NCBI GenBank assembly: GCA_003990765.1
Contig: RBNJ01000206.1
Coordinates: 1 to 36,681 of the forward strand
Direction: 5' to 3'
Length of the DNA stretch: 36,681 nucleotides
Source of the DNA: Jimgerdemannia flammicorona
Taxonomy: Eukaryota
The notes below the pieces were generated by a model. It had not been told where the DNA came from. It was given only the letters and a program-made list of their open reading frames with translations, and ran no database searches. Shown piece by piece: positions 1,961-34,232 of the stretch. Every line of letters begins with the position of its first letter. Position 1 is the stretch's first letter. A program made the position numbers and the translations under genes.

Positions 1961-1961
1961 A

Positions 1962-7520: not shown

Positions 7521-7914
7521 AGGAACTAAGGCTAGAAAGACTGCTGCTAGTTATCTTAGGTCACTCAGATTTGTAGAGCTGACAAAACTCTTATATATTG
7601 AGAAGAGTAAAGAAGGCTTCAATAAGACCTTCTTCATCTTGACTTGCTGGGTGTAGGGCAAGGAGTTTGGTGAATAGAGTTTCACCTATTTGCTAATTTA
7701 ACTAGAATATTTCTTTCTTTGAATGAAGTTTGTCCCACTTGTTGCAGGTGTAGAGGTCAAATTGTCCTTATACATCAGGTTCAATTCTCTCCAAATTATC
7801 AGATGGTTCAGGATAAATTCCAGTTCAGAGGTTGAGCTTTATACCAACTTGTAGGAATTCACAGAGGGGTTTATAGTGGGGTGGGGAAGTATCTTAAAGC
7901 AGAATTGGATTGTA

Positions 7915-7928
7915 AACTGCTGCTACTA
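7915..7928 (-). other. Probable decayed primer-binding site
   Basis: Three bases inside the 5' LTR end the minus strand reads TAGTAGCAGCAG, one transition from TGGTAGC..., the start typical of initiator tRNA-Met PBSs. Confidence 0.45.
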
Positions 7929-7931
7929 AAT

Positions 7932-9994
7932 TGTAAGAGAGTTGCTTTTTAGAGTAACCATTATATAGTTCTGGAAGGGTTTTCTGAAAGTTCTAGATAT
8001 TCTGGAAGACTATTTTCTTATGGTCAAGATCAATTTCATATGGAGTGCATCCTCTATGCTTATTGATTTCAAGATCAGGTTGATGTCTCAACCAAAGTCT
8101 CTTTTTCAAACTAGTTCTGGATGTTTAGGATTTTCTATATTTCAGAAAGTTCAAGAAACTAAGACCAGCTTAGTTGAATTAGCATATTGCTGCAGACAAT
8201 ACCCAACTAGGAAATTTTGTGATGGGGTTAGGAGTGGGACCTAATGGGGAGTAGATTTACTTAAGAGTGATTTGTAGATTATTAAATAGGTTTATTCACT
8301 ATTCATGATATTGCTATACTAGGAATAGCTATATAAAGGAATATTGTGGGAAAGTGCTCAGAAGTTGTGTTTGGATTGTTCAGGTCTGAGATTCTGAGAT
8401 CTGGGAGAGGGGGTATTTATACTAGTGAGAGACTATCTGGACTATGCTTGATATGGATATAGTACTTAGTACCTTGCTGAGTCAGAATGCAGTCACATAG
8501 TACAAGTGTGATCTGACATATTAAGAGATTGTCTAACTACTGAGTCAGTTCACAGTTACATTATACAAAACTAATCTAACTATATTATGACTGTTAGGCT
8601 ATTTATAGATTTAGATACTATTTGGGTAGTCTTCAATAACATTACTATTGATAACATTATCTCTGATGAAGTAGTTGTCGAGGAAGAGTGGTTTGCAGAT
8701 TACTTCTCCTTATTCACTGAGGTAGTAATACATTGAGACTTTGTCATCATCCCACAGGATAGCATCATCTGTCTTATATGCTGGATAAGATGTTGGTGGG
8801 TGAAGGAGTGGTATATAATCTTTGCTTTTATTGAATTTGCTGTCTGCATATCTTCTATAGGTTATAGCACTATGAGTTGCAGGGTTATAGTAAGCTGGCA
8901 GCTGTAGTTCATGTCACTTATACTCAGGTGGTAGAGTTGTTGGTTTGATCTCGAGAGTTGTCTGAAGGTACAGGTTGTGTTCTCCAGTCTCTTCATTGTA
9001 GTTGAAGTAATCGGGAGTGAATGTTAGTATTCATACCAGTGGTCATTATCCCAGTAGGTCTCATAGGTAGTTATAAACTGTTGTAAGTTCATTGGCAAGG
9101 TTGGCAGTGTGATCAGGGTTGGCAGGGATCCTTGACTTGAGGTCATGTTAGTGTCAGAGAGATCATTATCTTCTGCTTTATCTTTATCGAACTGAATTAT
9201 ATTATAGATATCCTTCATGGCATATCTAACTTGAGACATTTGTAGGATATGGTTGTTGGGGTGTGAGAAGGTTTTGTCTGTAGTCTCAATGTACTCAAGG
9301 TACTTATGGTTGAGTTCTTGTATTATGTCATCAATTTGGCCATAGGCTAGAGTAGCAACCATTTTAGTGGTAGTAACTTAGAGATGGGGAATAACAGTGC
9401 TATACTCATAGAAGAGTTCTCAATGTTTGCGAGCAATGAGTTTCTGGTATTGGGACATCTGAGTAATATCTGTATTATGGTAGTATTCAATTATATCTTC
9501 CAGGAGGCAGCCGATCTGGTAGTAGCTTGAGATTTGTCTGATTTGGTGGATCTTGCTAAGCATGTTCAGGGTATTCCATTGAGATTCTATATAGTAGAGA
9601 AGTGCTAGGCTATGGATATTCATGAGGGGCAGAGGAGGTGTAGCTTGGTTGACAATGATATTCCAAATGTTAGCACAGATGTGGTTATAGATCTCGGTGA
9701 TCATGTTTGTATGTGTTCAGAAGTTGTGGTTGTTGTTTGTTTTGGTTCTCTGTTTCAACACATCTTGGTGCTTAGTATATATGCATTTGGTCCTGATTAG
9801 TAATATTCCATTTGTATGAATCTTGTGTTCTGTAACTTTGTGTTGACTCAGCTTTGTGTGCTGTGACTTTGGTTTAACTCAGCTTTGTAATCATACAGGT
9901 GATTTTCAGATTTGTTTAGAGATTGTATGTAATTTTGGTGGCTTGTTCAGAGGGTGATATGTGATTTCTGTAGCTTAGAGGTTATGTGCTTACA
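7932..9994 (-). repeat. 5' LTR (2063 bp, complete, TG...CA)
   Basis: Starts TGTAAG at 7932 and ends CTTACA at 9994. Aligns by eye with 123-~1960. Minus-strand TATAAATA at 8414-8421 and AATAAA at 8291-8296. Confidence 0.93.
8611..9704 (-). pseudogene. LTR-embedded ORF of unknown function (~360 codons ancestrally), 5' LTR copy
   Basis: ORF fragments 9420-9704 and 9024-9362 are in the same frame. The TAA at 9378-9380 is CGA in the other LTR (1577-1579). Combining the two copies extends the reading to ...DNVINSNVIEDYPNSI*. Confidence 0.65.
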
Positions 9995-10031
9995 ATATCT
10001 CAGAATATATATAAATTATACTTCAGAGAGA

Positions 10032-10070
<39 letters not shown>

Positions 10071-10979
10071 GGACTCATAGTCCCACAGATTTTTATTGGA
10101 AGAGAACCTAGACTATATAGGCCAAAACCCTCCCCCACCACTCACTGAACAATATTCCCCCATTAACCTAGGCTACTAAAATGTCCAGTAGTCTCACTGC
10201 TCCAGCTATACCTGTCGAACACTGGCTATGTTGACCCCCATGATATAGACTAGACTTGTCTACTCACCAGGACTAGATCATCATTTACACACAAGAGCAC
10301 ACCTATACATCAGATCTAGCAGTGCTGAGACTGAATAAAGAATAGCCTCCTGAACCCCAAAAGAAAGCCTGAGGTAAAGAAAAAACCCCCCAACTAACCA
10401 ATAGAGAGCAAAGTAAATTCAAAGTGGGTAAGTAAAGGACTTATATACAGCACCTTCCTCAAAGGACTTATATATGGGCTAGGGTCAGAAAAGACCCCAC
10501 TCCCACTCTCTGAGCCTGTGGGCCTTGACCATGTTGCTATGTCAGCTCCCAGTTTCAATCAGGTATTGCCAAATGAGGAAGACTCCACTTCCCAAGCCTG
10601 TGGGCCTCAATTATATTGCTGTGTCAGCTCCCAGTTCTAGTTGAGTATAGCCAGGATACTGGCCCCTGCATCACCCCACCCCCTACTAGTCAATCAAAAG
10701 ACCCAATCGAAATATTGTCTGCCTCAGCCCCAATAACCGCCCTCAGCCTGGCACCCTACTGATTCACCATTATCACTCATCCTCCTATCTGTGATGGCCA
10801 TCTCCCCTCCCATCCCAACAACATCTGAAAAAACAATCACCTATACCAGAACTGTGCTCACTGGGAAGCTCACCAAAGCCAGAGAGCCCCACCACTAGTA
10901 CTCTGAACAAGTCAATTTGAATCAAATCTGGATTCGATTCATCACATGACAGTTTGATCTGAATCTCAAATCTGAAGCC

Positions 10980-11232
10980 ATCCAAATCAACTCGAATTAA
11001 TCCGAATTGCCCCATCCAAATCACCCCATCCAAATCACCCATCTGAACCACCTCAATCTGAATTACTCAATCCGAATCACTCAATCTGAATCACTCAATC
11101 TGAATCACTCAATCCAAATCACTCAATCTGAATCCTCCAATTCGAATCCTCCAATTTGAATCCTCCAATTTGAATCCTCTAATCTGAATCCTCATTTGAA
11201 TCCTTCAACTGAATCCTCCAATCCAAATCCTC
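10980..11232 (+). repeat. Left subterminal 14-bp tandem repeats of the hAT
   Basis: Units such as AATCTGAATCACTC and AATTTGAATCCTCC in tandem, followed by a (CA)-rich microsatellite at ~11270-11334. Confidence 0.85.
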
Positions 11233-11334
11233 CACATGACTCATATGCTGGACACGTCCACAATACATTATATATACACACATATACAACACACACATAC
11301 ACACACACATGCACATACAAACACACAAACACAC

Positions 11335-13907
11335 ATGTCGACAGATCAGTCTTCAACAGTTCACAGTACCAATGATGCTTCAAGTCAAACATCTCTGATA
11401 GTTCCACACCTTCCATGCAATCCTTGCTCTGAAATCTGGCAATATTGTGCTAAGATAGGAGATGATGTTGTTTGTAATTATTGCAGGTAAAAAATTAAGA
11501 TACACCTATTGACTTGTTTGATATACACATGATATTGTTTCATCCACCCCCATAAACTGCACTAGCCAGAAGTTCAAAATGCTTGATAGTATGACCTCGA
11601 ACATGAATCGACACATAAAAGACAAGTACTCTGACAAAATAAAAAAGAATACAGAGACAAATAAAATCAACATCCAAGCTGTGGTGGGTACATTTATCCA
11701 ATTGCCCAACCATTTCTATACCAACAATGCCATTTAATCAAAAATATTTAGCCATACTCTTCAGCAGAATTTTGAAATTGGCTCATTCGCTAGATTGTGT
11801 GTACAGATCAGCCATTTACAACCATTGAGAGTGATCAATTGCATAGCATCTTTGGTCTCCTCAAGCATGATTTATATTTGCTAAGTGCTAATACTATTCG
11901 TAAAGATGTCCTGGAGGTCTATAGGAAGGAGCATGACAATCTCCGCCAGATACTTCAGATAAAATAAGGGCAGCACTATGACCTTTGCAGCTGAATTATA
12001 TAAAAGAGCTCACCAATTTAACCTTACATTCAATAAGCAGAATTCAGCAAGCAAAATTTCGTTTATAATCAACACATGGATATCCCCCAATGCAATTTTA
12101 TTTCTGGGCATTACTGGTCATTGGATTGACCTCGATTGGCAGCTTAAATCTCTCACCCTTGATTTTGTCAAACTTGCTGGCCCTCATTCTGGAGACAATA
12201 TTGCAGATGCTTTTATTAGTTGTATCCAGGAGCTTAGAATCACAACTAAGGTAAAAAAAGGAGGGCTTGCCATCAGATCAGCATTTTGAGGGAGGTTCTT
12301 AAACAGAACAGATTTTGTTGGTTATTTATTTTCATATAATTCGCCAACTGAATATTTCAAGTACAGATTTTGGCTATTACGACAGACAATGCCTCAAACA
12401 ACTCAACATTTTTCCAAGCTTTAGTGGCCAGCCTCAAACAGGAAAATGTGGTCTTTGGTATAGAAAGCTACCATATACGATGCCAGGCCCACATACTGAA
12501 CCTTGCTGTTCAGGACTATCTTACATACATAGACAAAACATCTGAGAGAGGAGGGGCCCTGAGTATAATTTCCAAGCTGTGCAAACTGGTTGTATCAGTC
12601 TGATCATCCCCACAATGATGAGATAAATTTGCTGCATAGTGTAGGGCAATCAGTTTAGCCCTGAAGAGCTTATATTGGATATCTGTACACATTGGAACTC
12701 AACATTTGCAATGATCTAGCACATGCTGGAGTTTGCTGTAGTATGCATCCTTTTTTTCTTCGGTCAGCTGAAGCAACTGTTTCAGATGATGGAAGATTTA
12801 TTTTAAAAAATTAAAAAAAAAAAAAAGCCAATAGATTCAATGATGACTGCTGATAAGGAAATATGGGCCGAGGCTCTAGGTGAAAGTGAGTGGGATGTAC
12901 TTAGAAATGTTGTCAGAGTTTTGGAAGTAAGTGATGGTTGCTCTGGCTCTATACTCATTTTGTCTGCCTCTATACAATGCAACACCTTACCATATATAAC
13001 TGCCAGTGTTTCGATGATTGTATGAAGGATATAGTCAAACAAACGACCCTAACAATAAGCTCTGCAATACCAGTATACAACCTTCTAATTGACTGGTTAG
13101 AGGACAAGCTCGAGGACAGGCTGGAGGGTTGCGGTGATTTATAGTTAAGCCTGGATCAGAGAGATGCCATGGAGGTTGCTCTAAGCAAGCTCAGGAAATA
13201 CTACTCCCAAACAGATACTGCCGTATACTTAATCAGTACAGGTATGTCGATGTTGGCATGTGGCCATTGCCCCTTCCAAAACAGAGAAAACCCTACAAAA
13301 ACTCACTCTCCTTTTCTTCAAATAGTGCTGGACCCATGCTTAAAGCTACAATACCATAAAGATCAGGGCTGAGAGCAGCACTTCATTGAGAGAACCAAGC
13401 AGACCATAATCAAAGTGTACCAGAAAAACTATGCACCGCTGCAAGGTTTCAGCCAAAGTCTGGATGAATATGCCGAGAGTTCCCTCCTGTCTCACATTTA
13501 CTTCAGCAGAAAGAGGAAGAGGGAGCCATCAGTGGAAGAGCTGCCGTCAATAGACAAACTCACCATTTATCTTGCCAGCAATCACATGATCCTGCTGGAG
13601 GGCATGGAGGTGCTCAACTGGTGGAAGGTGAGTTGTCAGGTGGGCATTGTCAGGCAGGCATTGGGCCAATTTAACCCACCAATCTAACCACCACTCTACC
13701 CACTGGGGCATGCAGCTGTGTCAAACAGACTTCCCCAACCTGTGTGGTATGGCTTGGGACTATCTGGTGATTCCTGCCTCCAGTGCTCCCATCAAGCAGG
13801 TGTTCTCAGGTGGGGTGGACCTTGTTGCCCCAAAGAGGTATGCACTGAATGCTGAGATAATCCAGACATATATATGTCTGAAGTCTTGGTGGGGCTCGGG
13901 CCACTAA
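11335..13907 (+). pseudogene. Intron-containing hAT transposase, decayed
   Basis: BED finger SEIWQY...CNYC...NMNRHI. SFIINTWIS...FLGITGHWID, where the first catalytic Asp reads N. AITTDNASNN, CxxH motif IRCQAHILNLAVQ, and THWNST. C-terminal dimerisation region LNWWK...FPNL..MA.DYLVIPASSAPIKQVFS, where the catalytic Glu reads K. GT-AG introns and in-frame stops. Confidence 0.95.
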
Positions 13908-14059
13908 AATTCAGTGGGTCTGTGGATAAGTTGATTGGCCTTGTGGAATATTTAATACCTTTCAAATTAATACCTTTCAAAAATAATAAAAAGGAAAAAA
14001 AAACCTGAGGACTCAGCCTGGAGTTTGTGGCCCAAGTGGGGCAGGGTTGGCGACAGTGG

Positions 14060-14500
14060 TAGAGAGAGTGCGCAATATTTGTAGCCCTCAGCCAGTAGCA
14101 AGGGGCAGCCCCAAGCTGCCAGTGCCCAGGTCGGTGGGCAGGTCAGTGGGTCAGTAGAGGGAGTGCGCAAAATTTGTGGCCCTCCACCAGCAGCAAGGGG
14201 CAGCCCCAAGCTGCAAGTATCCAGGTCAGGGGGGTAGGCAGAGAGAGTGCACAAAATTTGTGGCCCTCCACTAGCAGCAAGGGGCAGCTCCAAGCTGTCA
14301 GCACCCAGGTCAGTGGGTGGGGTTGGTTGGTGGGTTGGTGGACACAGAGTCGGTGGAGAGAGCATGCAAAATTTGTGGCCCTCCACTAGCAGTAAGGGGT
14401 AGCCCCAAGCCACAAGTGTCCGGGATAGGCGGGGCAGGTGGAGGGAGTGTACAAAATTTGCGGCCCTCTGCCAGTGGTATAGGGGCAGCCCCAAGCCGCT
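14060..14500. repeat. Five-unit GC-rich tandem array between the two convergent hAT genes
   Basis: A ~60-bp core GAGTGCGCAAAATTTGTGGCCCTCCACCAGCAGCAAGGGGCAGCCCCAAGC recurs at ~14064, 14161, 14243, 14358 and 14443, with G-rich linkers of variable length. Confidence 0.9.
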
Positions 14501-14721
14501 AAGGAGTCTGGGGCAGAGGGTGTTTCTGGTGGTTGGAGGGCATTTCTGGTGGTCGAAGTCACCAGTTCAGGTCCCACAGGCACCCCAGCCCTGTGCTGCA
14601 GTGCCACACTGGCGGCACTATAGAGCAGGGCCAAGGGGCCAGTAGGACCCTATATAATGGCTAAGCTAATGCTACATAAGAGGTGCCTAGCCCACATAAG
14701 ACTGCCCAACCCTCACAAAAA

Positions 14722-16837
14722 CTACTCCACCCACTGGTCCCAGGCCTTGATGAGCCTATCATCTATTGTGAGTGTGACGACTGTTATGTCCAAGCTCTCC
14801 TCGAAGGCGATGGTGCTGTGGTGGTCATGTGGTTGGAATAGGATAGCCGTATTGGCTGCAAATAGGACTCTGAAACTATAGGTGAGGTCATACCAGACTC
14901 CACCGCTGTCCTCTCAGATTGGGCCCTTCCTTTCTGGGATGTAAAACATTACCGGAGTGATATTATTATCTGTATGTGTGGGCAGAGAAAGGTTGTGCCT
15001 GACATATCCTGATGTGACATGAGTATACAGTTGGTGAACCCTTGGCCCAGGACCTCATACTGTCAGACTGTGCTAGTGGACACCTGCTCTTGGTCTAGCC
15101 CAGAGAGCCCCGGCTTGAAAACCTGCCAAAACAGACAGCAATCAGTCAGCCCTTTTTGCATACAGGGGGGCAGAAACCCCCCAGGCTGTAGTACCCTGAA
15201 AAAGCAGAGCTCCTCACCTCATATGGCATGCTAAATTGTGCCAAGAATGTACATACAGCCACACTGAGATCACCACCAAGCTGGCCTGCCATATGCTCTA
15301 CCAATCTGCTCAAAGAACCCCAGATCATAGTCACCATTACTGTACAGGCTGTGTTATGCTCATGTGTAGTTTGCTCTTCGATGGTACTTCTAAAGTTCTG
15401 GTAGGGGTACAGAATCTTGTGCATCCCTGGAATTGTATCAAAAAGAGTATATCAGCAAAGAGTGTGATTTATCTGGGGAGGGTTAAAAAAAAAGGGAGAC
15501 AAGTGTGGGGGATTTTGGAACTCTAGAACCCACCCTTCGCCAGTGTTGCAGTATACCCAATTCCCATCCAAACCCCCCCTCCTTGCTTTTTTCACCCCCT
15601 CTTTTCTGCTACCCAGTATTTGACACAATCCTTACAAATCTCATTAATGTGGTAGCAAAGCTCGTCACTATAGAGATTCCTTACCACCTCACAACCACCT
15701 CTCTGTATTTGTTAATAAAGATATGGTTCTCTTCGTCATTGGTTACTCCTGCTGGCCAATGGACCCCTTGGTCAAGTACAATTGGCTCTGATTCGAATGT
15801 AGACCCCCAAGCCTTGATGACGATGCTGATACTGCTCATGCTGAACATCTTGCCCTCAAATTTCTCTATTTGATCAGATGCTGGACATGGTTGAACTCAG
15901 GTAACTTTGAACTCTTCTTTCCAATAGAACTGAGCCCTGATCTGAGGGACCGAGATAAGTATACGGATGGGTTGCATACAGATGAGTTGCATGTAGGCAG
16001 ATTGCATGCAGGCAGGTTGCGTGCAGGCAGGTTGCATGCAGGCGAATTGTAGGTGGGTTGTGTGTGGGCAGGTTGCGTGTGGGCAGGTTGCATGCAGGTG
16101 GGTTATATGCAGGCAGGTTGCATGTGGACAGGTTGCATGCAGGTGAGTTATATGCGGGTGTGGGTGTTTTTTAGGGGAAGACCACATAAAAATGAAATTA
16201 AATAAAACACAGAGATGGGTATTTCAGAAAAAGAGCATGAGTGAGTGAGTGAGTGAGTGAGCTGCATGCCGATGAGTTGCATGCCAATGAGTTGCATGCT
16301 GACGAGTTGCACAAGTTGCACAAGATTGCTCATGAAGGCTTGCTTCTATTCCTTTTGAGACCTCTGCCATGCGATACATTGACTCAACAGCTTAGCCACC
16401 AAAGGCATGCCCCGCAATGTCTACCAGCCTTTCTTCATCTTGACCAGATGTTGTGAATAAAGTCGACAGATCTCGCCATAGAGCTGTGGACCCTAAGAAA
16501 AGCACAAGGTGAATTGAGTCATGCTGGGGAAGTTTAAATAAACATAAGTAAACAAGTGGTGGCCAAGTGAGCAACCTACATCTACTATCGACTGCTTCAA
16601 AAAGGCTGCCGCATACATAGCTATAAGGTCTGTGAATTCCGAGGTCTGAAGGGCCACTATGAGTTGTTGCTGGAATTCTCCCTCATCTCTGCCATCGCCA
16701 TTGCCATTGCCACCACCACTGCCATCACCCCTTTGGCTCTCAATGAGTAGCTTGTGTGTTGTCCATATGAGAAAGAATCTAACATTGTCAGCAGAGAGTA
16801 CATTTCTACCTCAAATACTCCCTCTTTTGACAATCAT
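14722..16837 (-). pseudogene. hAT cargo gene: spliced, decayed, with a C-terminal TET/JBP-like 2OG-Fe(II) dioxygenase domain
   Basis: ATG at 16837 (MIVKRGSI*GRNVLSAD...), several GT-AG introns and a repetitive linker. The last exon reads ...LYTHVTSGYVRHNLSLPTHTDNNITPVMFYIPERKGPI*EDSGGVWYDLTYSFRVLFAANTAILFQPHDHHSTIAFEESLDITVVTLTIDDRLIKAWDQWVE*. HxD is at 14968-14976, followed by GG, a hydrophobic strand ending in F, and HxT at 14812-14820. Confidence 0.65.
15965..16325. repeat. 15-bp minisatellites inside the cargo gene
   Basis: Units such as GTTGCATGCAGGCAG (15965-16150) and GAGTTGCATGCCGAT (16258-16325). They are separated by an intron-like stretch containing (GAGT)n. On the minus strand they read as 5-aa repeats (TQPAH, NLPAC). 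Confidence 0.85.
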
Positions 16838-17065
16838 TATAGGGTGAAAAATGAGTAGACTGGACCAATATATGAATTAAGGGCTGCTGTTTTGTTTGCT
16901 TGTGATGCGGCAGGAAAGAACAAAGAAAAAAAACAAAGAAAAAGAACAAAGAAAAGAACAAAAGAAGAGAGGGAGCAAAAGGAAAGGGTGATGTCACCAA
17001 AGTACAGTAGGAAAAAAAAAAACAAGAGTGAAATAAACAAAAGAAAGGGTGATATCACCAAAGAT

Positions 17066-17235
17066 TTCAATCTGAATGGATCAATCCGGATGGACCAATC
17101 TGGATGGACCAATCCAGATGGACCAATCTGGATGGACCAATCTGGATCAATCTAGATGGATCAATCCGGATCAATCTGGATCAGATCATGAGACCAATCT
17201 GAGTTGATTCAAATTCATCACATGATGAATCTGAA
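17066..17235 (+). repeat. Right subterminal repeats of the hAT
   Basis: 14-bp units AATCTGGATGGACC, 10-bp units AATCTGGATC, and a near-palindrome ATTCATCACATGATGAAT (17213-17230). Confidence 0.85.
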
Positions 17236-18344
17236 TCGAATCTCATCCGGATCAACTCTATCCATTCAGAGTACTACCCACCACAGACACCAAGAACCTG
17301 CAGATAACCTATACTGAGCACTTGATGCCCAAGGTTGGCTGACTCCCTATATAATCTATGATATACTGAGATAGTACCTTGTTGGTGATGGCAAAAGAAA
17401 GAAGGTACCGCACCAAAACAGATACACTCCAGATGCAGCCAAAGGTACCAGAAACTATGAAAAAGTAGAGAAGATACTAATCTGATACTGATAAAGAGAC
17501 AACTTATCACTATTGCCCTTCTTCTGCTATGCTCTTATAGGCATAGCAAACCAACCTGAGGTAGAGGGGATAATAATAGGGGAAAGGAGACTCAGAAGGT
17601 TGCCTACCAAACCTTATGACTGGTAAGTAGCAGAGAAAGGAGTATTCAGAGAGATTTTTGAAAGGATCTTTAAGCATGTAAGTTATTAAAGAGTGAGATC
17701 AGAGCTCAGATCAATACCATAGATGTCAAATCAAACCAGATATGATATAAAGTCAAAATATATCTATTACACCTTAGAATTACACCTTTGAGGAAATCTT
17801 TGAAGAGATCTTTAGCATGTGAACAGTTAAAGAAGTTCTTATTGTCATTATTATTATTTACAGAAGTTATATTAGAATGTAGATAACATCATGCAAATTT
17901 GCCTGTATGTGACTATGAGGTATGAGATATAACTAAAAGCTCCTCATTAATATATAGAGAGTGTAAAATAGATAATATACCTGATTCAATAGCAGGAAAG
18001 CATCAGGTAAGGCTGTCATACATACAAAATCACAATTGGGTGACGTCACTTTTTTTTTTTTCCTCAGTTCAAAGCAAACATTTTGCAATGAGCTACCGAT
18101 TTCCCTGTTGGGGCCTGCTACGGAGCCTGTTGGCCGGACTATTTGGCGGTTGCATGCTATCACCGTAATCAGACTCGAAACCACTACGGGCGTGAACGTT
18201 GCCAGAGGGCCTCGTCTCTTTATCCACAACCTAGTGCTTCTACATTTGTGAAATATATCTGTATTTCATATTAACGTGATGAATCTTGTATAATCTTCGA
18301 CAATACGAAATACCTACTAACTTTGCTTTTGACCGGTTCCTTAT

Positions 18345-18402
18345 GCCGGTCTTGGTTGCTGTAAACCAACTGATGAGCCCCTTAAGCAAGGGCGAAACCG
18401 GT
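18345..18402 (+). ncRNA. Type III hammerhead ribozyme
   Basis: Stem III GCCGGU (18345-50) pairs with ACCGGU (18397-402); cleavage triplet GUC with C at 18351. Stem I UUGGUU/AACCAA (18352-57/18364-69). Core CUGAUGA (18370-76). Stem II GCCC/GGGC (18377-80/18390-93). GAAA (18394-97). Confidence 0.92.
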
Positions 18403-19781
18403 TCCATAGAAACACCTATTTGTCTATAGGCAGCCCATCTTCCATTGTCGTGGCAAATGGAGTTGCGTAGAGTCTATCTTTGTAAGAGTTTGATCATTTG
18501 TTCATTTTAAAATAAAAATATTGGCCCTCACAATGGCTTCGTCATAGGGATTTGTGTGTGTTGGCTCATACTCTGTTTATTTTAAAAGTATGCAGTATAC
18601 ACGACCTTGACTGAACTGAATCTCTACACTAAAAAGTCAGGCAAGTCAGAGTTGAGCATATAAAAAGATATTCTTTGTGACTAACACACTATTCTGATCA
18701 CTCTTTCTTGCCGCAATTCTGACCACTCCGCCTTTCCACCATTCTCGACGTCCCGCCTGCATATTATTCCAGCATAATATTCTGATTCTGACAATACGAA
18801 TAGAGTCCGATAGAGTTTGACTTCTGGTATAACACGTCGTACCAGAGAGGAGTTGGATAGGAAGGGAGAGGGAGGAAGGAAACATGGGTGTCTGGTTTTT
18901 TGAGGCCCAAAGGACAGTCAATGGTCAATGGTTTCTTTTTCTCTTTTGCACGAATAAAGATGGACTTCTAAGAAAGGAACCAAGCAAACAAGCAATGAAT
19001 GTCATGTATCTAAAGTGCTCTTTCTTACAGGAGTTCACACAATTACCCGTACAATGAAAGCCCAACCCCGTTCATTGTCGGTCCGCATTCAGGGATTCCC
19101 TGAATGGCGCCGTTGTGCAGGTCTAAAGCATAGTGTGTGTTTGCAAAGGCTTCGATGGGAAGCTGTGACAGCAGCTTTTGACGACAGCCATGGAGCTCTG
19201 CGGCCGGTAGCAGGCAGGTTCAAGCTTACGATCCTTAAGCTCCGGATCCACACAAGAGTATCAACGGGGTCGCCATGCATGTCGAGAATACGTTGATTTT
19301 GGATCGACGATCAGAGAACCTTATGGGAGGTTGCGGTAGGACTGGGAGTGTGCGTTACTTAAGAAGTGGGAAGGAATGCTATGCAGAGAGAATTAGGGAA
19401 GAAAGTTGTATATCCATGATTATGCCAGTCAAAATGTTGGCTAATACGATATGCCTGCGGACACGTCCTATTTGATGAATCCTTAGCCCATCATTAACAG
19501 GGAAGCGATAATCGCAAAACTACATGCGATTTAGATGTTTAAAGTATTTGCATGTCGCAGGCCATCCATAGTGGGTGACATGTGTCATCGCCTCATAGAA
19601 GACTCCAGATACGGCATGCGGTAATAAATCAATAAGTACAATGCTCCACCCAGCGACGGCGCCGGGCAGCTTAAAAACCTCGCGGCTAATGGTTTGATGC
19701 GAAGATAGCAGCACTTCCTTTGACCGCGTATTCTGATCAGATGACGTCATTATTTGGTTCTATCGTAAGTTTACAATGTGC

Positions 19782-20607
19782 CTAGTTGATGTCTTTCAAC
19801 GCCATCGATCCTACCACCAAATTCAGCACTTCTTGTTTTCCTGCCTGTGGTGTGTCGCCAAGCTTGTAGTACTTTCGCACGCTTTTCAGATCCGTGAAGT
19901 TCTCAATTTGGTCCAGCGGTGTCTCATCGCCCTTAATGAGATCCTCGAGAGTTGCCCGTACCTACCATGTTGTATGAATCAATAGTGATGAGGGCCCTAT
20001 CATTTATTCAGTCCGAAACTCAAAAAGAACAAGACATAGAGTGTACCTCCTCAGCCTCGCTGCCGACCTTGGCGATGACCATGCCGGTCGTGGTATCGGA
20101 GATGCCAAACCGGCGGAGGGACTCGCTGATCTGCGCAGAGTCCGGGAAATTGTGCATCGTCAGCCCATACATATAGTGCCGAATAATTGGGCATTAAATC
20201 GAAAAGTGTCCTTCACCACTATTTACGTATCCCGAAACCTACATTCGTCGTCGGCGATAGGTTATACACAATCTCCGAGTGGACGTTGTGGGTTGTCAAG
20301 TGGCCGTGGCACTCGTCGTGCACAGCCTTGTTGGCCGCGGCGAGTACCTGAAACTTGTCGACAACCTGCCGTAAACGGTAGGCAATCCGAGAATGTTTGA
20401 AGTTGAACAGAGATCTTTACACCTCCCACAGGCGAACTGGTTCTCTCCCAGGAAACACACCACTTTTGCGTCCACGAACGCGAACGAGAGCGAGGCATCG
20501 GCGGCGAGCAAGCGTTTGCGAAGATCCCCCGCGTTAGTGACGTTGGTATAGAGGGTGAGGTGTACGGGGCCTTTGGTTGGGTGAGGTTCGAGCGGGAAGG
20601 ATTCCAT
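19782..20607 (-). CDS. CGI121: EKC/KEOPS complex subunit Cgi121/TPRKB (4 exons)
   Basis: Spliced reading MESFPLEPHP...LYTNVTNAGDLRK...AFVDAKV|VVDKFQVLAAANKAV...LTTHNVHSEIVYNLSPTTN|ISESLRRFGI...|...VRKYYKL...VVGSMALKDIN*, with canonical GT-AG introns. Confidence 0.9.
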
Positions 20608-20856
20608 GTTTTATGTATGGAGTGAAGGAGACCGGTGGCTTATTCGGAAGTATATCTATCAAATGGTGACGTCATCAATCCCACACACTCAATGCACACT
20701 CCTCTTAGTAATTTTCATATATTTTTCGTAAACACAAGCAGAAAGCACAAAAATTCCTACACCACCACGGTATCTTTACACTGGGCGCATTTGAGATTTG
20801 TCTATATAACGAACCCTTTTGGGATATGGATGACTGTCCAGGGCTCACATAACTGT

Positions 20857-23791
20857 CTAGACACGAGCGGGGCGAGTGCCAACACCACCGGCCTTGTCGA
20901 AGACCAGCTCGGCGACCCTGAAGGCCAACTCATCGGTCTCAGCGCGGGTGGCGGCCTCGGCATAAACGCGGACGGCATCTTCGGTACCGGAGGCTCTGAT
21001 CCATTGCAGATGGGAATCGTTTGTCAGTATGCGTACCAAAGACAAATCGACGAAAAGCGCGTGCGATTGACGATTATCGACCTACCGAACGAAAGAGCGG
21101 CCGCTGGTATATTTGGCGACCAGGGCGTCAATGTCAGCCTGCAAACCCGCGGGCTCGACAAGTTGGCGTTCGGCATTGGTGGTTTTGAAGATATGGCGGT
21201 TAGCGACCTAATGATTTTGCATAATAGCAATGCTATTAGTCAGGCTCATATGAAACCGGTGTACATAATTGAAGGATACGGAACATCGGTTGAACATCCG
21301 CACATAACCAAGCGGTTCCTTATCCATCGTTCACAGGACAAGTAAACTCATATTGCATACGTACCACAACCTTGACCAGCCTGTTGGGCAAATCAGTGTA
21401 GGCCTGGTCCCACTCCTTGAGGCTCCACTGACGGTGGGTCAGGATGGCCTCGACGAGTAGCATGTCCGAAAGAGCGTCGCCGACGGTTTGGTTGATGAGA
21501 TCGGTGAGCGCGCGGAGCTGGGCGATGGCGGTAGTCTGGGCGGGGGTGCGGCTGTGAACCGTCGACGAAAGAGCGTGCGTGAAGCGTAAACGAGACTTGT
21601 CAGGCAGTTGACCGTGCAAAACGTATGATGGAGGCAACATACCCTTTCGCCGTACGGATGGTCTGCAGCGCCTCGGCACTGAACAGGACGGTGCCGTGAC
21701 CGTTCGCCTCAAAGTAAACTCCAACGTCGTACTTCTCGGCCTCGTGATGCAAATGCTTGACGCCAGTGGAGACGCACGAAACGGGGACTTTCTGAGAATC
21801 CCGACCAAGTACGTGTCGAGGCAATATTAGTACATACCGCAACTACCAAGAAAAACGGGACCGAACATTCGATGACGCCACCCATTGCAGAACTTTTGCC
21901 AATTCTACCTACCAGAACCTTGGTGAGGTAGGTGGTGGAGTTGCCATTGGCGTAGGCAGTCTGGACAACGCCGACCTTGATACTGTCGACGCCGGCGGCC
22001 TGGACGAGGTCCATGATAAACATGGCAGAAAGACCGGCGATCTTGTCACCGTCAAGGAGGCGGAAGGTGCCGTCTTTATTTTTACGCAGGCGACAAAATC
22101 GACATTAGAGATTTGATTCAAATTATAACAAATTGCAGCTTTTGATACCCGAAAGACTAGAAAATGCAAGCACACTCACCAGTATCGACGTAGTAGTAGA
22201 CCAACCGATCAGCATCGCCGTCAAAAGAGGCGGCGCGGTCACCGCTGGTTACGGTAGAGCCGGGGGGGAGACGCTGCCCGGTCTTGACGTAGTCGGCGCC
22301 GCACTGTGATAACAAAAAACGATCGCATTATGACCACGCTCTCCAAAGGCTCTCAACTAGAAAACCTGCATGACTGGACATGGCCCTACTCACGTTGTGG
22401 TTCAGCGCGCCCTCGACACCGATCTTGTCGTTAACAATGTTGACAGAGATGATGTCTTCGCCGATGACCTCGATGAGTTCACGGAGCTTGGGGGCGCCAA
22501 CCCCGTTGGCGCAGTCGACGTACAGGGGAGAGAGGCGCTGCTTATCGCTCTAAAGACGTGGAGACCAACAAAATCGCAGGGTGGTGTGCTTAGTTTCGAT
22601 CTGGTGAATTTGTGAGCGTAGATACTCGCTCATCATCGACGATCTACAATTGGCTTTATTTTCCTCCACACCTTCTTCCGAACAAGTCGCAATACGAACC
22701 ACGATCTGACGGAACGCCGTGGCGAGCTTATTGTAGTATCCTATCTCGGTAGGCTCGCCGTAGGCATCGTTGGTACCTTGAGTATTGAGACAGCGGACAC
22801 CATAGTGAAGCTGGGGGGTGGTCTTGAGACCGAAGTTGGTGTAGGAGCTGCCGGCGGCCTTGATGGCGTCTTCGAGCGAGGCAACTAGGGCGGGGCCGCT
22901 TGGCCTACGTACGTAAAAAGTGAAGAGACACGGTTGTAAGATTGCGTTCTGTCGATATGAGGTGACCACTTTTAAAAAGTTAATTTCTTCTTAAGTCATA
23001 CTAAGCCACCAGAGGTGACATTTAAAAGTAGCTGGTTTACATGTGTGCAACGACGGTGCCCATATATATGTTGGCTCACCCCCTCTCCAATCACCCACGT
23101 CACCAGAAACTCAGACGGATCCCCCAAGCAATCAGACAAAGCCCGCTTTACCTTGTATCATAAGCATAAAGGATATTGGAAGGTTTGTTGACGTCGATCT
23201 TGTTCTGCGCGATGATCCTCTCCAGGGTCTCGACGAGTGCGTCGTCGTTGGGCGCGTTAGCCAGGCTGGTGGCGTAAACCTCCCACGACTGCTCAAGCAT
23301 CTCACCACGAGGGTCGACGAGCTTGACGCCGTTATCCTATCAGATTTAAGATCCGGCGGCACGTGCAAGTTGGTTGGGTCAACGGCACGTTCTCGGACGT
23401 CATACATTGGCCACGGTGCGTGTCACCCACTCAATGAAGGATATGCAGAGGAAAGGGCTGAATCACAGGCCAGAACACGTACCTCCTCGGGGTTGTGGGA
23501 AGCGGTGATCATGACACCAATGACGCTGCCGTCGAGCTTCTTGGAACGGAGGACGGCGATAAGGCCCACGCGGAACATGATGGAGTCCAGGAGGGACGCC
23601 CTGGAGACAGGATGACGCGTGAGATTTGTACCGAGATTGATATAGAGGGTGGGCCTATGGATTGGAGATGGCTAAAAATGTTAGACTTACTTCATGCGGA
23701 AACCAGCGGTACCATATGTGAATTGGATGTTCTGAGGTTTGGGGTGGAGGGCAGAGGCGGTGACGATGTTCTCGAAGGTGAAGGCAGACAT
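20857..23791 (-). CDS. PGM3: Phosphoacetylglucosamine mutase (AGM1/PCM1/PGM3), multi-exon
   Basis: Motifs [21 protein letters not shown] (catalytic Ser), DCANGVG, FDGDADR (metal loop), [10 protein letters not shown], and [15 protein letters not shown]. Confidence 0.96.
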
Positions 23792-24097: not shown

Positions 24098-27000
24098 ATG
24101 TCTGACCTGCGCTTCGATAACCGTGTTGTCATTGTCACCGGCGCTGGCGGTGGTATGCACCCTGTTCTCCACTCTGATCCCACTGTGAGAAGAAGAAACG
24201 TTACTGACCTGTCACATTTTATCAAAATAAAAATAATAATAATCCCAACCACCCTCAGGTCTCGGTAAAGCCTATGCCCTCTTCTTTGGCGCGCGCGGCG
24301 CGTCCGTGGTCGTGAATGACCTTGGCGTGAGCCGTTCCGGCGACGGCACTTCCACATCCGCGGCTGACGTGGTCGTCGAGGAGATCCGCAAGGCAGGCGG
24401 CAAGGCCGTGGCCAACTACAACTCAGTCGAGGACGGCGACAAGATCGTTGAAACAGCCATGAAAGCCTTCAACCGCGTCGACATCATTATCAATAACGCT
24501 GGTATCCTGAGGGACAAGTCCTTCGCTCGCATGACCGACGCCGACTGGGATTTGATCCAAGCCGTCCATGTCAAGGGCAGCTACAAGGTCACAAAGGCCG
24601 CTTGGGATATCTTCAAGAAGCAGAAATTCGGAAGGTACGTTTGGATTGTGATACGGGTCATGCTGAACCAATCAATTGGAATATGTCCGCTCAAACATTC
24701 CTCTCTCAACATTCCTTCGTAGAATCATCATGACTGCTTCGGCCGCTGGCGTCTATGGCAATTTTGGACAATCCAATTACTCCGCAGGTGAGTTCTTAAA
24801 CACATCTAAGCACAATTACCACACACTGTTGGTGGCCAGAAATAAAATCAATGAGCAAGACTGCTGGTCCCTCTGTACGCATTTCTCTCATACTTTCCAT
24901 TGACATCTCACATGCCGCAATCAGCCAAGCTCGCCCTGGCCAGTTTCAGTAGCACATTGGCAAAGGAAGGCGCAAAGGACAACATCCACTGCAACACCAT
25001 CGCCCCCATGGCTGCCTCTCGCATGTAAGCAATCCCTGGCTGGCTTATATATTAATTTGTCCAAATATCCCAATCGACCGAACGAGCAACCCACCACTCT
25101 TACTAACCAATCGCCACCCGACCATCACCACCACCATCACCATTACCACCACCATCACCATTACCACCACCATCACCATCACCACCACCCCCTCCCCACC
25201 CAGGACCGAGAGTATCATGCCGCCGGACGTCCTCGCGGCGCTCAAGCCTGAATATGTGGCCCCACTTGTGGCGTACCTCTGCCACGAGACGACGAAAGAA
25301 AACGGCGGCCTGTTCGAGGTGGGCGCCGGCTTCGTGGCCAAGCTCCGCTGGGAGCGCTCCAGGGGTGCCGTCTTCAAGGCTGATGACACCTTCTCCCCAG
25401 CTGCTGTCGGCGCCAAGTGGGGCGAGATCACAGATTTCTCCAACCCCGAGTACCCGTCGTCCGTTACCGACACAGACTTCCTCTCCCTCCTCGAACAGGC
25501 GAAGAATCTCGCGGCTAACCCAAAGGTCGCGCCGCTTACATACGACGGCAAGGTTGCTATCGTGACGGGAGCTGGCGGTGGCCTCGGTCGTGCTTACTCG
25601 CTTTTGCTGGCTAGGCTCGGGTGCGCTGTCGGTAAGTTATGATGTCCATATCATGTACGCCGGCTCGAATTTGAATACGTGTATCTAATTACATTTCGAG
25701 CATAACAAGCATCCCCATTCTGTAACCACCTACGCTCACAATACCAACCTTTTTTTTTTTCTGAAACCCACCGCAGTCGTTAACGATCTCGGTGGTTCCG
25801 CCACGGGCCAGGGTTCCGACAGCCGCGCCGCGGACAAGGTGGTCGAGGAGATCCGGCAGGCCGGCGGCAAAGCTGTGGCCAACTACGACTCTGTGGAGGA
25901 CGGCGACAAGGTCGTGGAGACGGCCATCAAGGCCTTCGGCCGTGTCGACATCGTCGTCAACAACGCCGGCATTCTGCGCGACAAGTCCTTCGCTCGTATG
26001 ACCGACGGCGATTGGGACCTAGTTCACCGCGTCCATCTCAGGGGCACTTACAAAGGTGTGTGGATTAAAAGCTGTCTAAAGGAAGAAGGTTGTTCGTTCG
26101 TGATGCTGTGTAGGCTGACCAAATTCAATATAAAATCTGTCCAGTTACCAAGGCCGCCTGGCCACATTTCCTGAAACAGAAGTACGGTCGCGTTATCAAC
26201 ACGGCGTCCGCCGTTGGCCTGTACGGCAACTTCGGCCAAGCGAACTACAGCGCCGGTATGTAAAAGCTTTAACAGATCGTGTGCTTAAACACTATGGTCA
26301 CTTATTCCAAGTGTCGCTTGTCCTACAAATTTATAGCCAAGCTCGGTATCGTCGGGTTGACCAAAACTTTGGCCATTGAGGGCAAGAAGAACAACATTTT
26401 AGTGAACGTGATCGCTCCTAATGCTGGCACCCGCATGTACGTAATAGCATAAATCGTGTAACATATTTACGTAATAGTATAGCGAGAATTGTGTTTTAAC
26501 CTTGCCTAAATACCGCACAGGACCGCCACCGTCATGCCTCCGGAGATGGTCGAAGCCTTCAAGCCCGAATACGTCGCTCCTCTCATCGCCTTCCTAGGCC
26601 ACGAATCTTGCCCCGAGTCCGGCAGCATCTTCGAGGTGGGCAGCGGGTGGATCGCCAAGGTCCGCTGGCAGCGCAGCGGTGGCGTAGGCTTCTCGTCCTC
26701 GCAGCCGCTACTCCCAGAGCAGATCGCTAAACACTGGAGCGACATCGTCAACTTCAACGATGGCCGCGCCACCCATCCGACTTCCACCCAGGAGGCGTTC
26801 CAGCAGTTCATGGATAACTTCGCAAACAGTGCTGTGTCTGAGCCGACCAAGAAGGAGGATGGGCTTGATATTGAAGCCGCAAAGAAGCTCACGTTTGACC
26901 CTATGGAGTTCTCGTATTCTGAGCGCGATGTCATCCTTTATGCGTTGGGCGTCGGCGCTAAGCGCACAGACCTCCATCTCGTGTATGAGAACGCCGAAAA

Positions 27001-28546
27001 CTTCACGGTTCTGCCCACCTTTGGTGTGATTCCATCCTTCGCCGCCATGAACGCCGTTCCTTTTGGCGATTTCCTACCTTCGTTCAATCCCGTAAGCCGA
27101 CATTTCAAATGTTTGAATCATTATTAATGGTTCGCCAGCCTTTCTACCATTGACTTAACCGCCTTCCCTCTCCTCGCCCAGATGATGCTCCTCCACGGCG
27201 AGCAGTTCCTCTCCTTGCGCAAGCCGATCCCGACCAGCGGCAAGTTCAATTCCAAAGCGCGTGTCATCGACATCCTCGACAAGGGCAAAGGCGCATCCGT
27301 CGTCATCGGTGTCTCCACCACCGATGAATCCGGCGACGTCCTCTTTGACAACGAATTCACCCTGTTCATCCGCGGCATCGGCGGATTCGGCGGAAAGAAG
27401 ACCGGCGAGGACCGCGGCGCGGCCACCGCTACAAACAATCCGCCTAACCGTCCTCCGGATGCAGTCGTGCGCGAGAAGACCGCCGAGGATCAAGCCGCGT
27501 TGTATCGGTAGGTGTTTGGTTGGATTTGATACCTTTGGCATTCATTAACTACAAGATTGGCATGTAATCGATCTAATACATTCGTTCTTGCTTTAATTGT
27601 TATAGTCTCAGTGGTGATTACAACCCGCTTCACATTGACCCTTCCATGTCAAAGATGGTGAGAATCCTTATTTCGTTTGGTCGAATTTTCTTCTTTCGTT
27701 TGATGAGACCTTTTCGTTCAGGTTACAAACATGTCTCTTCTTTCTCTGCAGGGCGGCTTCGACGTTCCCATTCTCCATGGTCTTGCCTCATTCGGCATCG
27801 CAGGCAAGCACGTTCTTGCCACATACGGCAAGAACGACTCCGCCAGCTTCAAGACCATCAAGGCGCGCTTCGCAAAGCACGTTTTCCCCGGCGAAACGCT
27901 CGAGACGCAGATGTGGCGTGAGGGTAACAAGATCATCTTCCAGGTCCGCGTGGTGGAGCGCGACACCATTGCCATTTCCAACGCGGCCGTTGAGCTCGCG
28001 GGTACATCTGACGCCGCCGCCGCCGCCGCTACTGGATCCCCGGCCGTGGCGCCCAGCGGTGGCATTGCCGTCGACGGATTCCAGTCCTCGGCCATTTTCG
28101 GGCAGATTAAGGATAACATAAACGCCACCTCGTCGGCCGAGCGGAAAGCACAAGTCGGCAAGATCAAGGCCGTTTTCCAGATGGACATCACAAACAAGGA
28201 TGGCAAGGCCCAGTCGTGGTACATTGACCTCAAAAACGGCGAGGGCGATGTCGGCCTTGGGAAACCGGCCAAGGGCAAGCCGGATTGTACCATCGCTATC
28301 AACGATGCGGACTTTGTCGAGATGGCTGCTGGCAAGCTGAACACGCAGAAGGCGTTCATGCAGGGCAAGATTAAGGTAGAGTATGGTTTTCACGTAATCC
28401 TTGGGTCTGTGACCTGAAGCCGGGTTACTCATACCTTTTTGTTCGTTGCCCCCTCTTTTTGTGGGTCCATTTAGATCAAGGGTAACATGATGCTTGCCAC
28501 CAAGCTTGGCGACGTACTGAACAAGCAGCCCAAATCCAAATTGTAG
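24098..28546 (+). CDS. FOX2: Peroxisomal multifunctional beta-oxidation enzyme type 2: two SDR dehydrogenase domains, MaoC-type hydratase 2, SCP2 domain, PTS1
   Basis: Two copies of VTGAGGGLG...[11 protein letters not shown]...YGNFGQxNYSAAK. Hydratase motif [14 protein letters not shown]...PILHGL. SCP2 region WYIDLKNG...PDCTI...[17 protein letters not shown]-terminus ...PKSKL* (28535-28546). Confidence 0.97.
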
Positions 28547-33190: not shown

Positions 33191-33712
33191 GGTTTCAAAT
33201 TCTTTGTGGCGCGTTTTCGCGGTGAAATGAAGTCCATATGCTGACGTCACTATCTGCGTGACTGCTGAATTGGCGACATATTCTGATATTCTGTAGCATT
33301 TCGCATGTATCTTTAGCATTTCGCATGTATCTTTGAATTATCTGAAATGCACTCTTCAGCAAGATATTTCTGGCTTTGAAAGAGACGGCTGCAATCACTT
33401 TTAGCTTGATCTGGGACTTACGTCACAACAATTTTATTTGTTAGAGTATTCGGATGATGCCATCATTGCTTTATTTATTTTATTTTGGCCCAAGGTATGC
33501 TTTCAAATCAATTTGAATTGACCTCTTGATTTTAATCTAATTTAAATCAATTTTAATTTAATTTAATTCAATTTATTTAAAAGTACTAAAAATAAGATTT
33601 ATTAAATAAAAATATATTTATTTTAGTTTAGTTAGTTAATTAATTATTTACTAGCTTAGTTAAAGAGATAGAATCTTACTTATAGATAAGACTTAATAAA
33701 GATAATAGTTAA

Positions 33713-34126
33713 CCTCCCACCTCACGTGTAAGTCCTTTACTCACCTCAACTGGGAGAACCAGGCCCTACCCACCATGTTGTGCTTTGATGAGGGTTTTTT
33801 ATTTGCCTGTCATTCTCTTTGGGGTGGCAGAGGCTATTCTATTTGGCTCGGGCATGGCCTTATACATATGTTGGATTCTCAGATGTGTGCTTTCAGTCAT
33901 TGGTGTATGGTTGGGTTTTCCCTGGTGGTAGGGAGAGCATGGTGTGCAGAATGAGGTGTGGGCTTATCAGCCCTGCTGTGCCTGGCATGGTCGAGCTGCT
34001 GGACAATAGCTAGCCTAGGTTAATGGGGGGGCAGTGCTTGGTGGGTGGTGGGGGAGGGTTTTGGCCTATATAGTCTAGGTTTCCTTCTAATAAAAATCTG
34101 TGGGACATGAGTCCGTAAAATAAAAA
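33713..34126 (+). mobile_element. Short 5'-truncated copy of the poly(A) retroposon
   Basis: Matches 36271-36681. AATAAA followed by an A-rich tail. 15-bp TSD AAAGATAATAGTTAA (33698-33712 and 34127-34141). Confidence 0.92.
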
Positions 34127-34232
34127 AAAGATAATAGTTAAGTATAATTAAGTCAAATGTATTTATCTATTAATTATAAACCATTAATTTATATTTTCTT
34201 AATTATTTTACTAAATAAAACTAAGCTAAAGA

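Follow-up and report, generated by a model that had tools for sequence, protein, structure and literature searches.

Hammerhead ribozymes cleave RNA by a chemistry that leaves one end with a 2',3'-cyclic phosphate and the other with a 5'-OH. The long terminal repeat (LTR) retrozymes of plants, reportedly described by Cervera et al. in 2016, are said to carry type III hammerheads in both LTRs. Ribozyme repeats that spread via small, often circular RNAs have been described for plants (type III, LTR) and for animals (type I, tandem). The available part of Cervera and de la Pena 2020 (PMC7229834) gives type III hammerheads as the mark of plant LTR retrozymes; type I hammerheads in tandem non-coding repeats define the non-LTR retrozymes, with abundant heterogeneous circular RNAs in animals. 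From the parts of the other sources likewise available, the type I hammerheads of Penelope-like elements in fungi have a large helix III and show activity as monomers (Cervera and de la Pena 2014, PMC4209133), Penelope insertions typically show partial tandem redundancy (PMC8557442), a 2026 preprint derives animal retrozymes from Penelope pseudo-LTRs (10.64898/2026.07.22.740005), and hammerhead-bearing circular RNAs replicate in fungi (PMC11721086). Here we describe a hammerhead motif of type III topology at positions 18345-18402 of contig RBNJ01000206.1 from the fungus Jimgerdemannia flammicorona (Endogonales, Mucoromycota). The whole 36,681-base stretch is referred to as the window.

On balance, the motif is probably a dispersed copy of a multi-copy, non-coding, transcribed ribozyme repeat family of J. 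flammicorona that resembles retrozymes or Penelope-derived repeats. Ribozyme-bearing non-coding repeats are already known; the permuted topology and a conserved competitor arm are the distinctive traits here. A literature search, with subscription papers and supplements outside its reach, found neither retrozymes nor genomic hammerheads of type III reported for fungi, Mucoromycota included. The accessible portions of five sources (PMC4209133, PMC7229834, PMC8557442, PMC11721086, PMC13725137) mention hammerheads of fungal DNA genomes only as the type I ribozymes of Penelope-like elements.

A complete hammerhead motif of type III topology

The motif was identified by sequence reading, folding and a descriptor scan. 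Its parts, all on the plus strand, are as follows.

18345-18402, plus strand: complete hammerhead motif of type III topology (helix III open, helices I and II loop-capped)
18345-18350, plus strand: 5' strand of helix III, GCCGGU (G18345 to U18350), directly before C18351
18349-18351, plus strand: GUC cleavage triplet; C18351 is position 17, with the predicted cut after it (placement relative to the core)
18352-18357 with 18364-18369, plus strand: helix I, UUGGUU/AACCAA, six Watson-Crick base pairs (bp), capped by the hexaloop GCUGUA (sequence and fold)
18370-18376, plus strand: catalytic core strand CUGAUGA (sequence)
18377-18380 with 18390-18393, plus strand: helix II, GCCC/GGGC, four G-C pairs opened by G10.1-C11.1 (sequence and fold)
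18394-18397, plus strand: core GAAA (G12, A13, A14, A15.1) (sequence)
18397-18402, plus strand: 3' strand of helix III, A18397 followed by CCGGU; helix III comprises one A-U, four G-C and one G-U pair

All conserved core nucleotides of hammerheads (Rfam clan CL00010) are present, with C18351 as H17, and A18397 pairs with U18350 to form A15.1-U16.1. The three-helix layout of 6, 4 (+2) and 6 bp is the minimum free energy structure of the isolated 58-mer (-18.5 kcal/mol); the two additional pairs (UU/AA) are gained by helix II in the centroid fold, past a bulged C and with AAGC as the loop. The stability of this fold is ordinary (z = -1.72; 11 of 200 shuffles were at least as stable). In natural hammerheads that cleave efficiently, loops 1 and 2 typically make tertiary contacts; the corresponding elements here are GCUGUA, AAGC and the bulged C of helix II. 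Judged by their sequence, the 58 bases are a genuine hammerhead motif, for which self-cleavage itself is predicted. The initial annotation had described a complete type III hammerhead with all core nucleotides and three stems, a cut expected after C18351 and no second copy in the window. The anatomy was confirmed, and the predicted cut position agrees with the placement of the core. As to copy number, a descriptor with relaxed stems (at least 3, 2 and 2 bp for helices I, II and III) identified no second hammerhead on either strand of the 36,681 bases, and neither BLAST nor a repeat finder gave a second copy of the motif within the window. A search for a second ribozyme or for other ribozyme classes on both strands of 15500-21000 produced only chance-level Rfam matches.

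The Rfam Hammerhead_3 model (RF00008) matched the motif at 24.1 bits, about half of its gathering score of 48.5, with an E value of 0.0042 on 251 bases and of 0.093 on 5.5 kb; no match was listed for the whole window at the gathering threshold. The alignment is local and spans model positions 7-48, and helix III is thus unscored. Comparison with this model had been proposed in the initial annotation, and its outcome is divided: the core aligns to the model and the score stays below the threshold. The viroids and plant satellite RNAs behind RF00008 share with the motif the core nucleotides, the three-helix layout and the type III topology. Those systems are RNA replicons, whereas the motif is a repeat in genomic DNA and reaches only about half of their threshold score.

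The frequency of such motifs by chance was estimated by running the descriptor over 600 Mb of random sequence of the local base composition. This yielded three motifs with stems of at least 4/4/3 bp, none with at least 5/4/4 and none with the observed 6/4/6. Since no motif of comparable stem lengths occurred in 600 Mb, a chance origin is very unlikely. A fortuitous match to the hammerhead consensus would be in keeping with a Rfam score far under the gathering threshold and with the unexceptional fold of the 58-mer against its shuffles. It does not account for the random-sequence result or for the homologous copies found elsewhere, in which the changes keep the structure, and we consider it wholly improbable. 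The completeness of the motif and its non-chance origin are held as established.

The motif lies in the conserved part of a multi-copy repeat block

Contigs of four sequencing runs (X1-X4) were compared with positions 17700-19100 of the window. X1 is a probable RNA run, its label being guessed; X2 and X3 are soil metagenomes, guessed to be DNA. One X1 contig matches 18602-18891 and 19029-19100 without mismatch while skipping a 137-base intron with GT..AG ends on the minus strand, which indicates that X1 contains spliced RNA. The comparison defined a recurrent block around the ribozyme.

18261-18453, strand unassigned: block common to other family copies, from contig matches; its most conserved part is 18326-18404

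In X1, 82 contigs match 17700-19100, 54 of them only in part, and contigs run on beyond the block into sequence unrelated to the window. The listed pieces (18261-18340, 18306-18404, 18326-18404, 18368-18453, 18371-18443 and 18385-18453) have 5-10 differences each and lie within contigs of 117-1,273 nt that are otherwise unlike the window. Long contigs of 461 and 1,273 nt, both at a depth of about 160, hold the block internally with 7-10 differences, and in several loose-end consensus sequences of X1 the window's flanks can be recognised in diverged form. A 226-nt contig of X3 matches 18326-18404 with a single difference (78 of 79 bases) and has unrelated flanks; X2 contributed two further diverged pieces of the block. 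No X4 contig matched, which is no evidence of absence. The occurrence of the motif in many contigs with varied flanks identifies it as the conserved core of a multi-copy family, and we hold as established that a block of 80-190 bases recurs with different flanks. The initial annotation had taken the ribozyme for a solitary copy in unique, non-repetitive DNA; the 82 X1 contigs and the two soil metagenomes with their differing flanks overturn this.

Variation among the X1 contigs falls largely outside the catalytic nucleotides. The change 18361 G>T lies in loop 1, 18365 A>G turns an A-U pair of helix I into G-U, and an insertion in loop 1 is also among the variants inside the motif. A 4-base deletion at 18364, present in a single contig, would break helix I. 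No variant of the catalytic core is listed among the matching contigs.

The summed X1 depth was 12,537 over 18358-18404, falling to 1,755 and 641 in the two bins on its left and to 304 in the one on its right; the depth of contigs reflects expression poorly, and these sums pool all family members. The neighbouring spliced transcript, which comes from a single locus, has a depth of about 6.7 in the same run. The abundance and heterogeneity of the ribozyme-bearing X1 contigs fit active transcription of many family copies.

The same depth could be read in another way, with the locus as a partial DNA copy of a viroid- or ambivirus-like circular RNA, the fungus as the host in which this RNA replicates and the abundant X1 RNA as the replicon. 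Hammerhead circular RNAs are known to replicate in fungi (available part of PMC11721086), and the greater-than-unit-length, permuted layout described below would be expected from the copying of a circle. The many flanks and many variants at high depth favour dispersed genomic copies instead, as do the soil metagenome contigs, guessed to be DNA, that carry the block with differing flanks. Moreover, no ribozyme of opposite polarity lies nearby, no RNA polymerase gene was found, and none of four scans of viral contigs gave a relative of the type III layout, a pattern of that layout having 0 matches. Such a replicon is thus an improbable source of the locus.

Two segments further right, 18593-18640 and 18828-18921, also have summed X1 depths (54-204) well above that of the local transcript (about 6.7). 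One X1 contig joins the ribozyme block directly to these segments, with joints 18435>18598 and 18640>18862. Such joints suggest that the repeat may reach to about 18920, spanning about 660 bases with internal insertions and deletions.

The ribozyme is a circular permutation of type I hammerheads from environmental tandem repeats

A metagenome scan with a pattern that fixed only the ends of helices I and III and the core returned 23 loci, most of which are unrelated hammerheads fitting the pattern. Five (L008, L009, L018, L021 and L003) share the window's helix II and its loop. Over 40 bases, the window ribozyme shares 85-95% identity with type I hammerheads of environmental tandem repeats. In L008, the identity is 95% over 18363-18402 and 100% over 18346-18361, with the two pieces in the opposite order; this reversal makes the window motif a circular permutation of the type I form, which we regard as established for the core. 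The type I layout of L008 runs CCAA, core, helix II and GAA, followed by a helix III that is minimal and palindromic (ACCGGU); then come the cleavage site and UUGGUUGCUGG. The stretch between UUGGUUGCUGG and the next ribozyme copy consists of other sequence, about 480 bases long.

Each tandem unit of these repeats holds one hammerhead, in units of 530 (L008), 647 (L021), 655 (L012) and 394 bases (L026). An all-against-all comparison of L003, L008, L009, L010, L018 and L021 found only about 50 bases around the ribozyme in common, and none of 27 reading frames from L003, L008, L010, L018 and L021 had a Pfam match. In nine aligned ribozymes, the helix II pair 10.2-11.2 covaries (C-G in three, U-A in four, A-U in two), with 97.2% of cells paired. 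The fold of the 530-nt unit of L008 is unexceptional (z = -1.62). One type I ribozyme per non-coding tandem unit is the signature given for non-LTR retrozymes in the available part of PMC7229834.

With the animal non-LTR retrozymes described there, the environmental relatives share a type I hammerhead in each non-coding tandem unit, here of 394-655 bases. The window's family, too, is heterogeneous, has many copies and is strongly represented in a probable RNA run. Head-to-tail units of about 150-450 bases with a type I hammerhead characterise these retrozymes, as far as the source is available; L008, L021, L012 and L026 display this feature and the window copy lies outside any array. At the site itself no tandem array was found, only 1.14 units of a 65-base period. 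The window copy differs from animal retrozymes also in being permuted to type III, with a 6-base loop in place of the repeat body, and in having a 6-bp helix III rather than the minimal palindromic ACCGGU. In addition, its host is a fungus and its family is known from contigs only, which cannot reveal ends or circles.

Further hammerheads came from the same scans. Among viral contigs, the exact helix II pattern gave 0 matches; three matches to a generic pattern were set aside, their layout being read as that of unrelated phage-type hammerheads. A degenerate helix II pattern gave one type I hammerhead, on a 106-kb contig (L027, 601-629, minus strand), with a long helix III hairpin and a helix II and loop nearly the same as in the fungal motif. 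The sole match in a scan of prokaryote genomes was L026, a 523-base contig in the draft assembly of Demequina iriomotensis with two type I hammerheads. Positions 1-523 hold 1.3 units of its tandem repeat, which is GC-rich, has a period of 394 bases and contains one type I hammerhead in each unit; we suspect a small retrozyme- or viroid-like repeat or a contaminant, uninformative about the fungus. Another group of metagenome contigs (L016 at 1501-2557, L017, L022, L005 and L007) has three type III hammerheads spaced 486-564 bases apart with weaker type I matches between them. Their type III matches score 31.7-37.6 bits in Rfam, and they look like a separate tandem ribozyme repeat family.

An upstream arm is predicted to compete with helix III

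The sequence just upstream of the ribozyme repeats part of its 3' end.

18331-18337, plus strand: upstream competitor arm GACCGGU, pairing with 18345-18351 (7 bp, 7-nt loop UCCUUAU; folding)
18332-18340, plus strand: first copy of a 9-base direct repeat, ACCGGTTCC (sequence reading)
18397-18405, plus strand: second copy of ACCGGTTCC, 65 bases after the first

With this redundancy, the block resembles a 65-base hammerhead unit present 1.14 times. Thermodynamic folding in contexts of 81, 151 and 195 nt gave the competitor hairpin a probability of 0.9-1.0 and helix III one of 0.0. The best structure with all hammerhead pairs was less stable by 6.8, 8.0 and 6.4 kcal/mol, respectively, in a calculation that is purely thermodynamic and has tertiary contacts and kinetics outside its model. 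The arm is transcribed first and should therefore win kinetically too. Its position within the segment conserved in X3 (78 of 79 bases) makes it a family feature and not an accident of this locus.

The hairpin has two readings. On a type I reading, it forms a closed helix III of 6 bp that ends at the cleavage site; on a type III reading, it is the rival of the real helix III. In the latter reading the arm would sequester a helix III strand together with the cleavage site, which renders the activity in the native context uncertain. According to these folding models, this copy is probably a poor or switchable self-cleaver, and most likely an inert or weakly active dispersed member of its family. 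The family is a natural instance of a hammerhead with a conserved competing hairpin.

Comparison with LTR retrozymes and Penelope-like elements

Features of known element classes were sought around the motif. The hallmark of LTR retrozymes, two direct LTRs each with a type III hammerhead, does not occur, with one hammerhead in 36.7 kb. BLAST and the repeat finder detected no LTR pair or flanking direct repeats at the motif beyond 9-14 bases. A tRNA-Met primer-binding motif, allowed up to 2 mismatches, had eight matches, none of them in 18261-19000; a polypurine tract was not searched for. Primer-binding-like motifs are located at 6373 and 35106. A putative solo LTR with edges at 18260 (TG) and 18455 (CA) was considered and dropped, as the flanking 4-5 bases mismatch as a target duplication. 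No telomeric repeats and no tRNA- or SINE-like features (short interspersed nuclear elements) were found. Of the 57 reading frames of at least 75 aa to the left of 18300, 43 were compared with Pfam, as were 22 further frames; the 14 remaining frames on the left lie in low-complexity repeats (13795-17152). Penelope-like elements have a reverse transcriptase gene, with or without a GIY-YIG endonuclease, between ribozyme-bearing pseudo-LTRs; in the frames run, the only reverse transcriptase or integrase matches were the following pair.

4138-4401: RVT_1 (Pfam), forming an LTR-type pair with the integrase, 14 kb from the motif
2645-2923: rve, integrase (Pfam)

Plant LTR retrozymes and the window copy have in common the type III topology, a non-coding context and membership of a dispersed repeat family. 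The window differs by having no LTR pair, second ribozyme or nearby primer-binding motif, and its ribozyme is closer in sequence to type I tandem-repeat ribozymes than to the Rfam type III model.

The fungal Penelope-like hammerheads (Cervera and de la Pena 2014, available part of PMC4209133) resemble the window copy in their fungal host, in a helix III whose length allows monomer activity and in residing in a retroelement-type repeat. They are type I, lie in pseudo-LTRs that flank a reverse transcriptase gene and are often telomeric; the window motif is type III and has neither such a gene nor telomeric repeats. The block could nonetheless be a fragment of the pseudo-LTR of a Penelope-like retroelement, whose ribozyme would trim the element's transcript. 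The fungal elements of this class have hammerheads of type I whose helix III is large, and the hairpin ACCGGU-UCCUUAU-GCCGGU followed by C17 would, as a permuted type I, be exactly such a closed 6-bp helix III. The 9-base terminal repeat resembles the partial tandem redundancy of Penelope insertions (PMC8557442), and the preprint that derives animal retrozymes from Penelope pseudo-LTRs (10.64898/2026.07.22.740005) would bring the two origins together, both sources being available in part. On the other hand, the Pfam frames run revealed no Penelope-type reverse transcriptase, the sole one found being the LTR-type RVT_1 that stands with an integrase at 2645-4401, 14 kb off; telomeric repeats are missing, and the tested reading frames of the environmental relatives have no Pfam match. 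The type I reading is also incomplete in this copy, because the bases preceding the hairpin are not GAA. We therefore view a Penelope fragment as doubtful, though the best placed of the alternatives to a retrozyme-like repeat.

A model for the origin of the permuted ribozyme

For the reading that we prefer, a dispersed copy of a retrozyme- or Penelope-derived-like repeat family, the following history is proposed. The ancestor of the family would be a retrozyme-like element of type I, either tandem or circular. Through a head-to-tail junction, or because the repeat body was lost, the post-cleavage strand UUGGUUGCUG would have come to lie directly before the pre-core strand AACCAA, and helix I would thereby have been closed by the 6-base junction loop GCUGUA in place of a body of several hundred bases. 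Helix III would then form between the remnant of a preceding unit and the end of the present one. The 9-base terminal redundancy with its 65-base period would be what remains of this event, since a head-to-tail junction, or reverse transcription continuing beyond one unit, should leave such a trace. Given transcription of the plus strand and formation of the active fold, cleavage of the RNA would occur after C18351. As there is no second ribozyme in 36.7 kb, this copy alone cannot release a unit-length or circular RNA, and the upstream arm probably keeps it mostly uncut. Like the origin by permutation, retrotransposition and any cleavage or circularisation are inferred.

Several results weigh against the preferred reading. 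The Rfam score is about half of the gathering score. No LTR, primer-binding site, reverse transcriptase or telomeric repeat was found near the motif. In all three sequence contexts the competitor hairpin displaces helix III from the predicted fold. L027, on a 106-kb viral contig, has a similar type of helix II, and the likeness of L008 may thus in part reflect a widespread functional sequence type. The invariance of the core is partly built in, since the contigs were found through similarity to it, and one X1 loose-end consensus (agreement 0.71) differs at the cleavage triplet; from this sequence, some family copies may be dead. The depth that suggests expression is subject to the pooling mentioned above. 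Cover of the copy's own flanks in X1 is nil or near nil (0 at 18076-18216, 1.48 at 18452-18498 and 0 at 18499-18592), where the two zero values say nothing on expression, and transcription is accordingly not assignable to this particular copy.

A bolder version of the proposal is possible, and we offer it tentatively: that Endogonales harbour an active retrozyme-like family of short non-coding repeats, whose abundant RNAs are processed by the hammerhead and possibly circularised, which was permuted from type I to type III, which uses the conserved competitor hairpin as an off-switch for cleavage and which would be the first retrozyme-type element in fungi. If true, the retrozyme class would reach a third kingdom through an abundant hammerhead family with many copies in an early-diverging mycorrhizal fungus, and a simple permutation would connect the topologies of types I and III. 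Such a family would also be relevant to the question whether genome-encoded ribozyme repeats gave rise to the fungal viroid-like circular RNAs that are currently coming to light.

Genomic surroundings of the ribozyme

The DNA around the motif retains CpG, as had been noted in the initial annotation: the observed/expected ratio is 0.93 at 18261-18453, against 0.10 at 1-13000 and 0.35 at 33000-36681. The two latter blocks are CpG-depleted and AT-rich, with strand-skewed composition and remnants of LTR retrotransposons, which fits decay resembling repeat-induced point mutation (RIP). The ribozyme repeat may have kept its CpG by being too short or too young for RIP-like targeting. Between the transposon block and the ribozyme lie a 14-base tandem array of eight copies (17054-17185) and simple repeats resembling proline/histidine-coding sequence (15900-16400). 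Other features to the left and to the right are listed here.

13632-13904, plus strand: remnant of a hAT transposase dimerisation domain (PF05699, E = 6e-10)
from at least 19100 down to about 18602, minus strand: spliced transcript, antisense to the ribozyme (X1 contig of 739 nt, 0 differences, depth 6.7)
19785-20610, minus strand: CGI-121 gene, with exons in several minus-strand frames (PF08617 on 20296-20610; further exon-like frames by eye)
right of the motif, minus strand: phosphoacetylglucosamine mutase and further genes
26510-28417, plus strand: peroxisomal multifunctional enzyme type 2 with a C-terminal SCP2 sterol-carrier domain (PF22622, PF01575, PF02036)
28780-29778: gamma-tubulin complex reading frame, with 100% identity to a J. 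flammicorona protein at NCBI; its next relatives are from Glomeromycotina

The intron of the minus-strand transcript spans 18892-19028, with GT..AG on the minus strand (CT..AC on the plus strand; joint 18891>19029). The transcript ends about 200 bases short of the ribozyme and at least 685 bases beyond the CGI-121 stop codon, and the frames of 18602-19100 have no Pfam match. It could be a long spliced 3' untranslated region or a separate non-coding RNA.

These neighbours bear on the two origins that the initial annotation had offered, a domesticated RNA-processing element or the relic of a retrozyme or circular RNA. A retrozyme-like relic or copy fits the results; domestication, in which the ribozyme would process a host transcript near CGI121, has gained no support. 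The intactness of the motif and the CpG content of its surroundings, unlike that of the decayed transposons alongside, would suit a retained function. The block is multi-copy with varying flanks, however, and the only transcript seen at the locus is antisense and stops about 200 bases short of the motif, with no plus-strand transcript observed there. The CGI-121 stop codon lies about 1.4 kb from the ribozyme on the opposite strand, no link to a gene was found, and the competitor hairpin is predicted to out-compete the active fold in context. A host function of this kind is accordingly very improbable, and a dispersed copy of the ribozyme repeat family remains the preferred account of the locus.

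The domain order of the peroxisomal enzyme at 26510-28417 is presumably of the animal type, unlike that of Dikarya Fox2.

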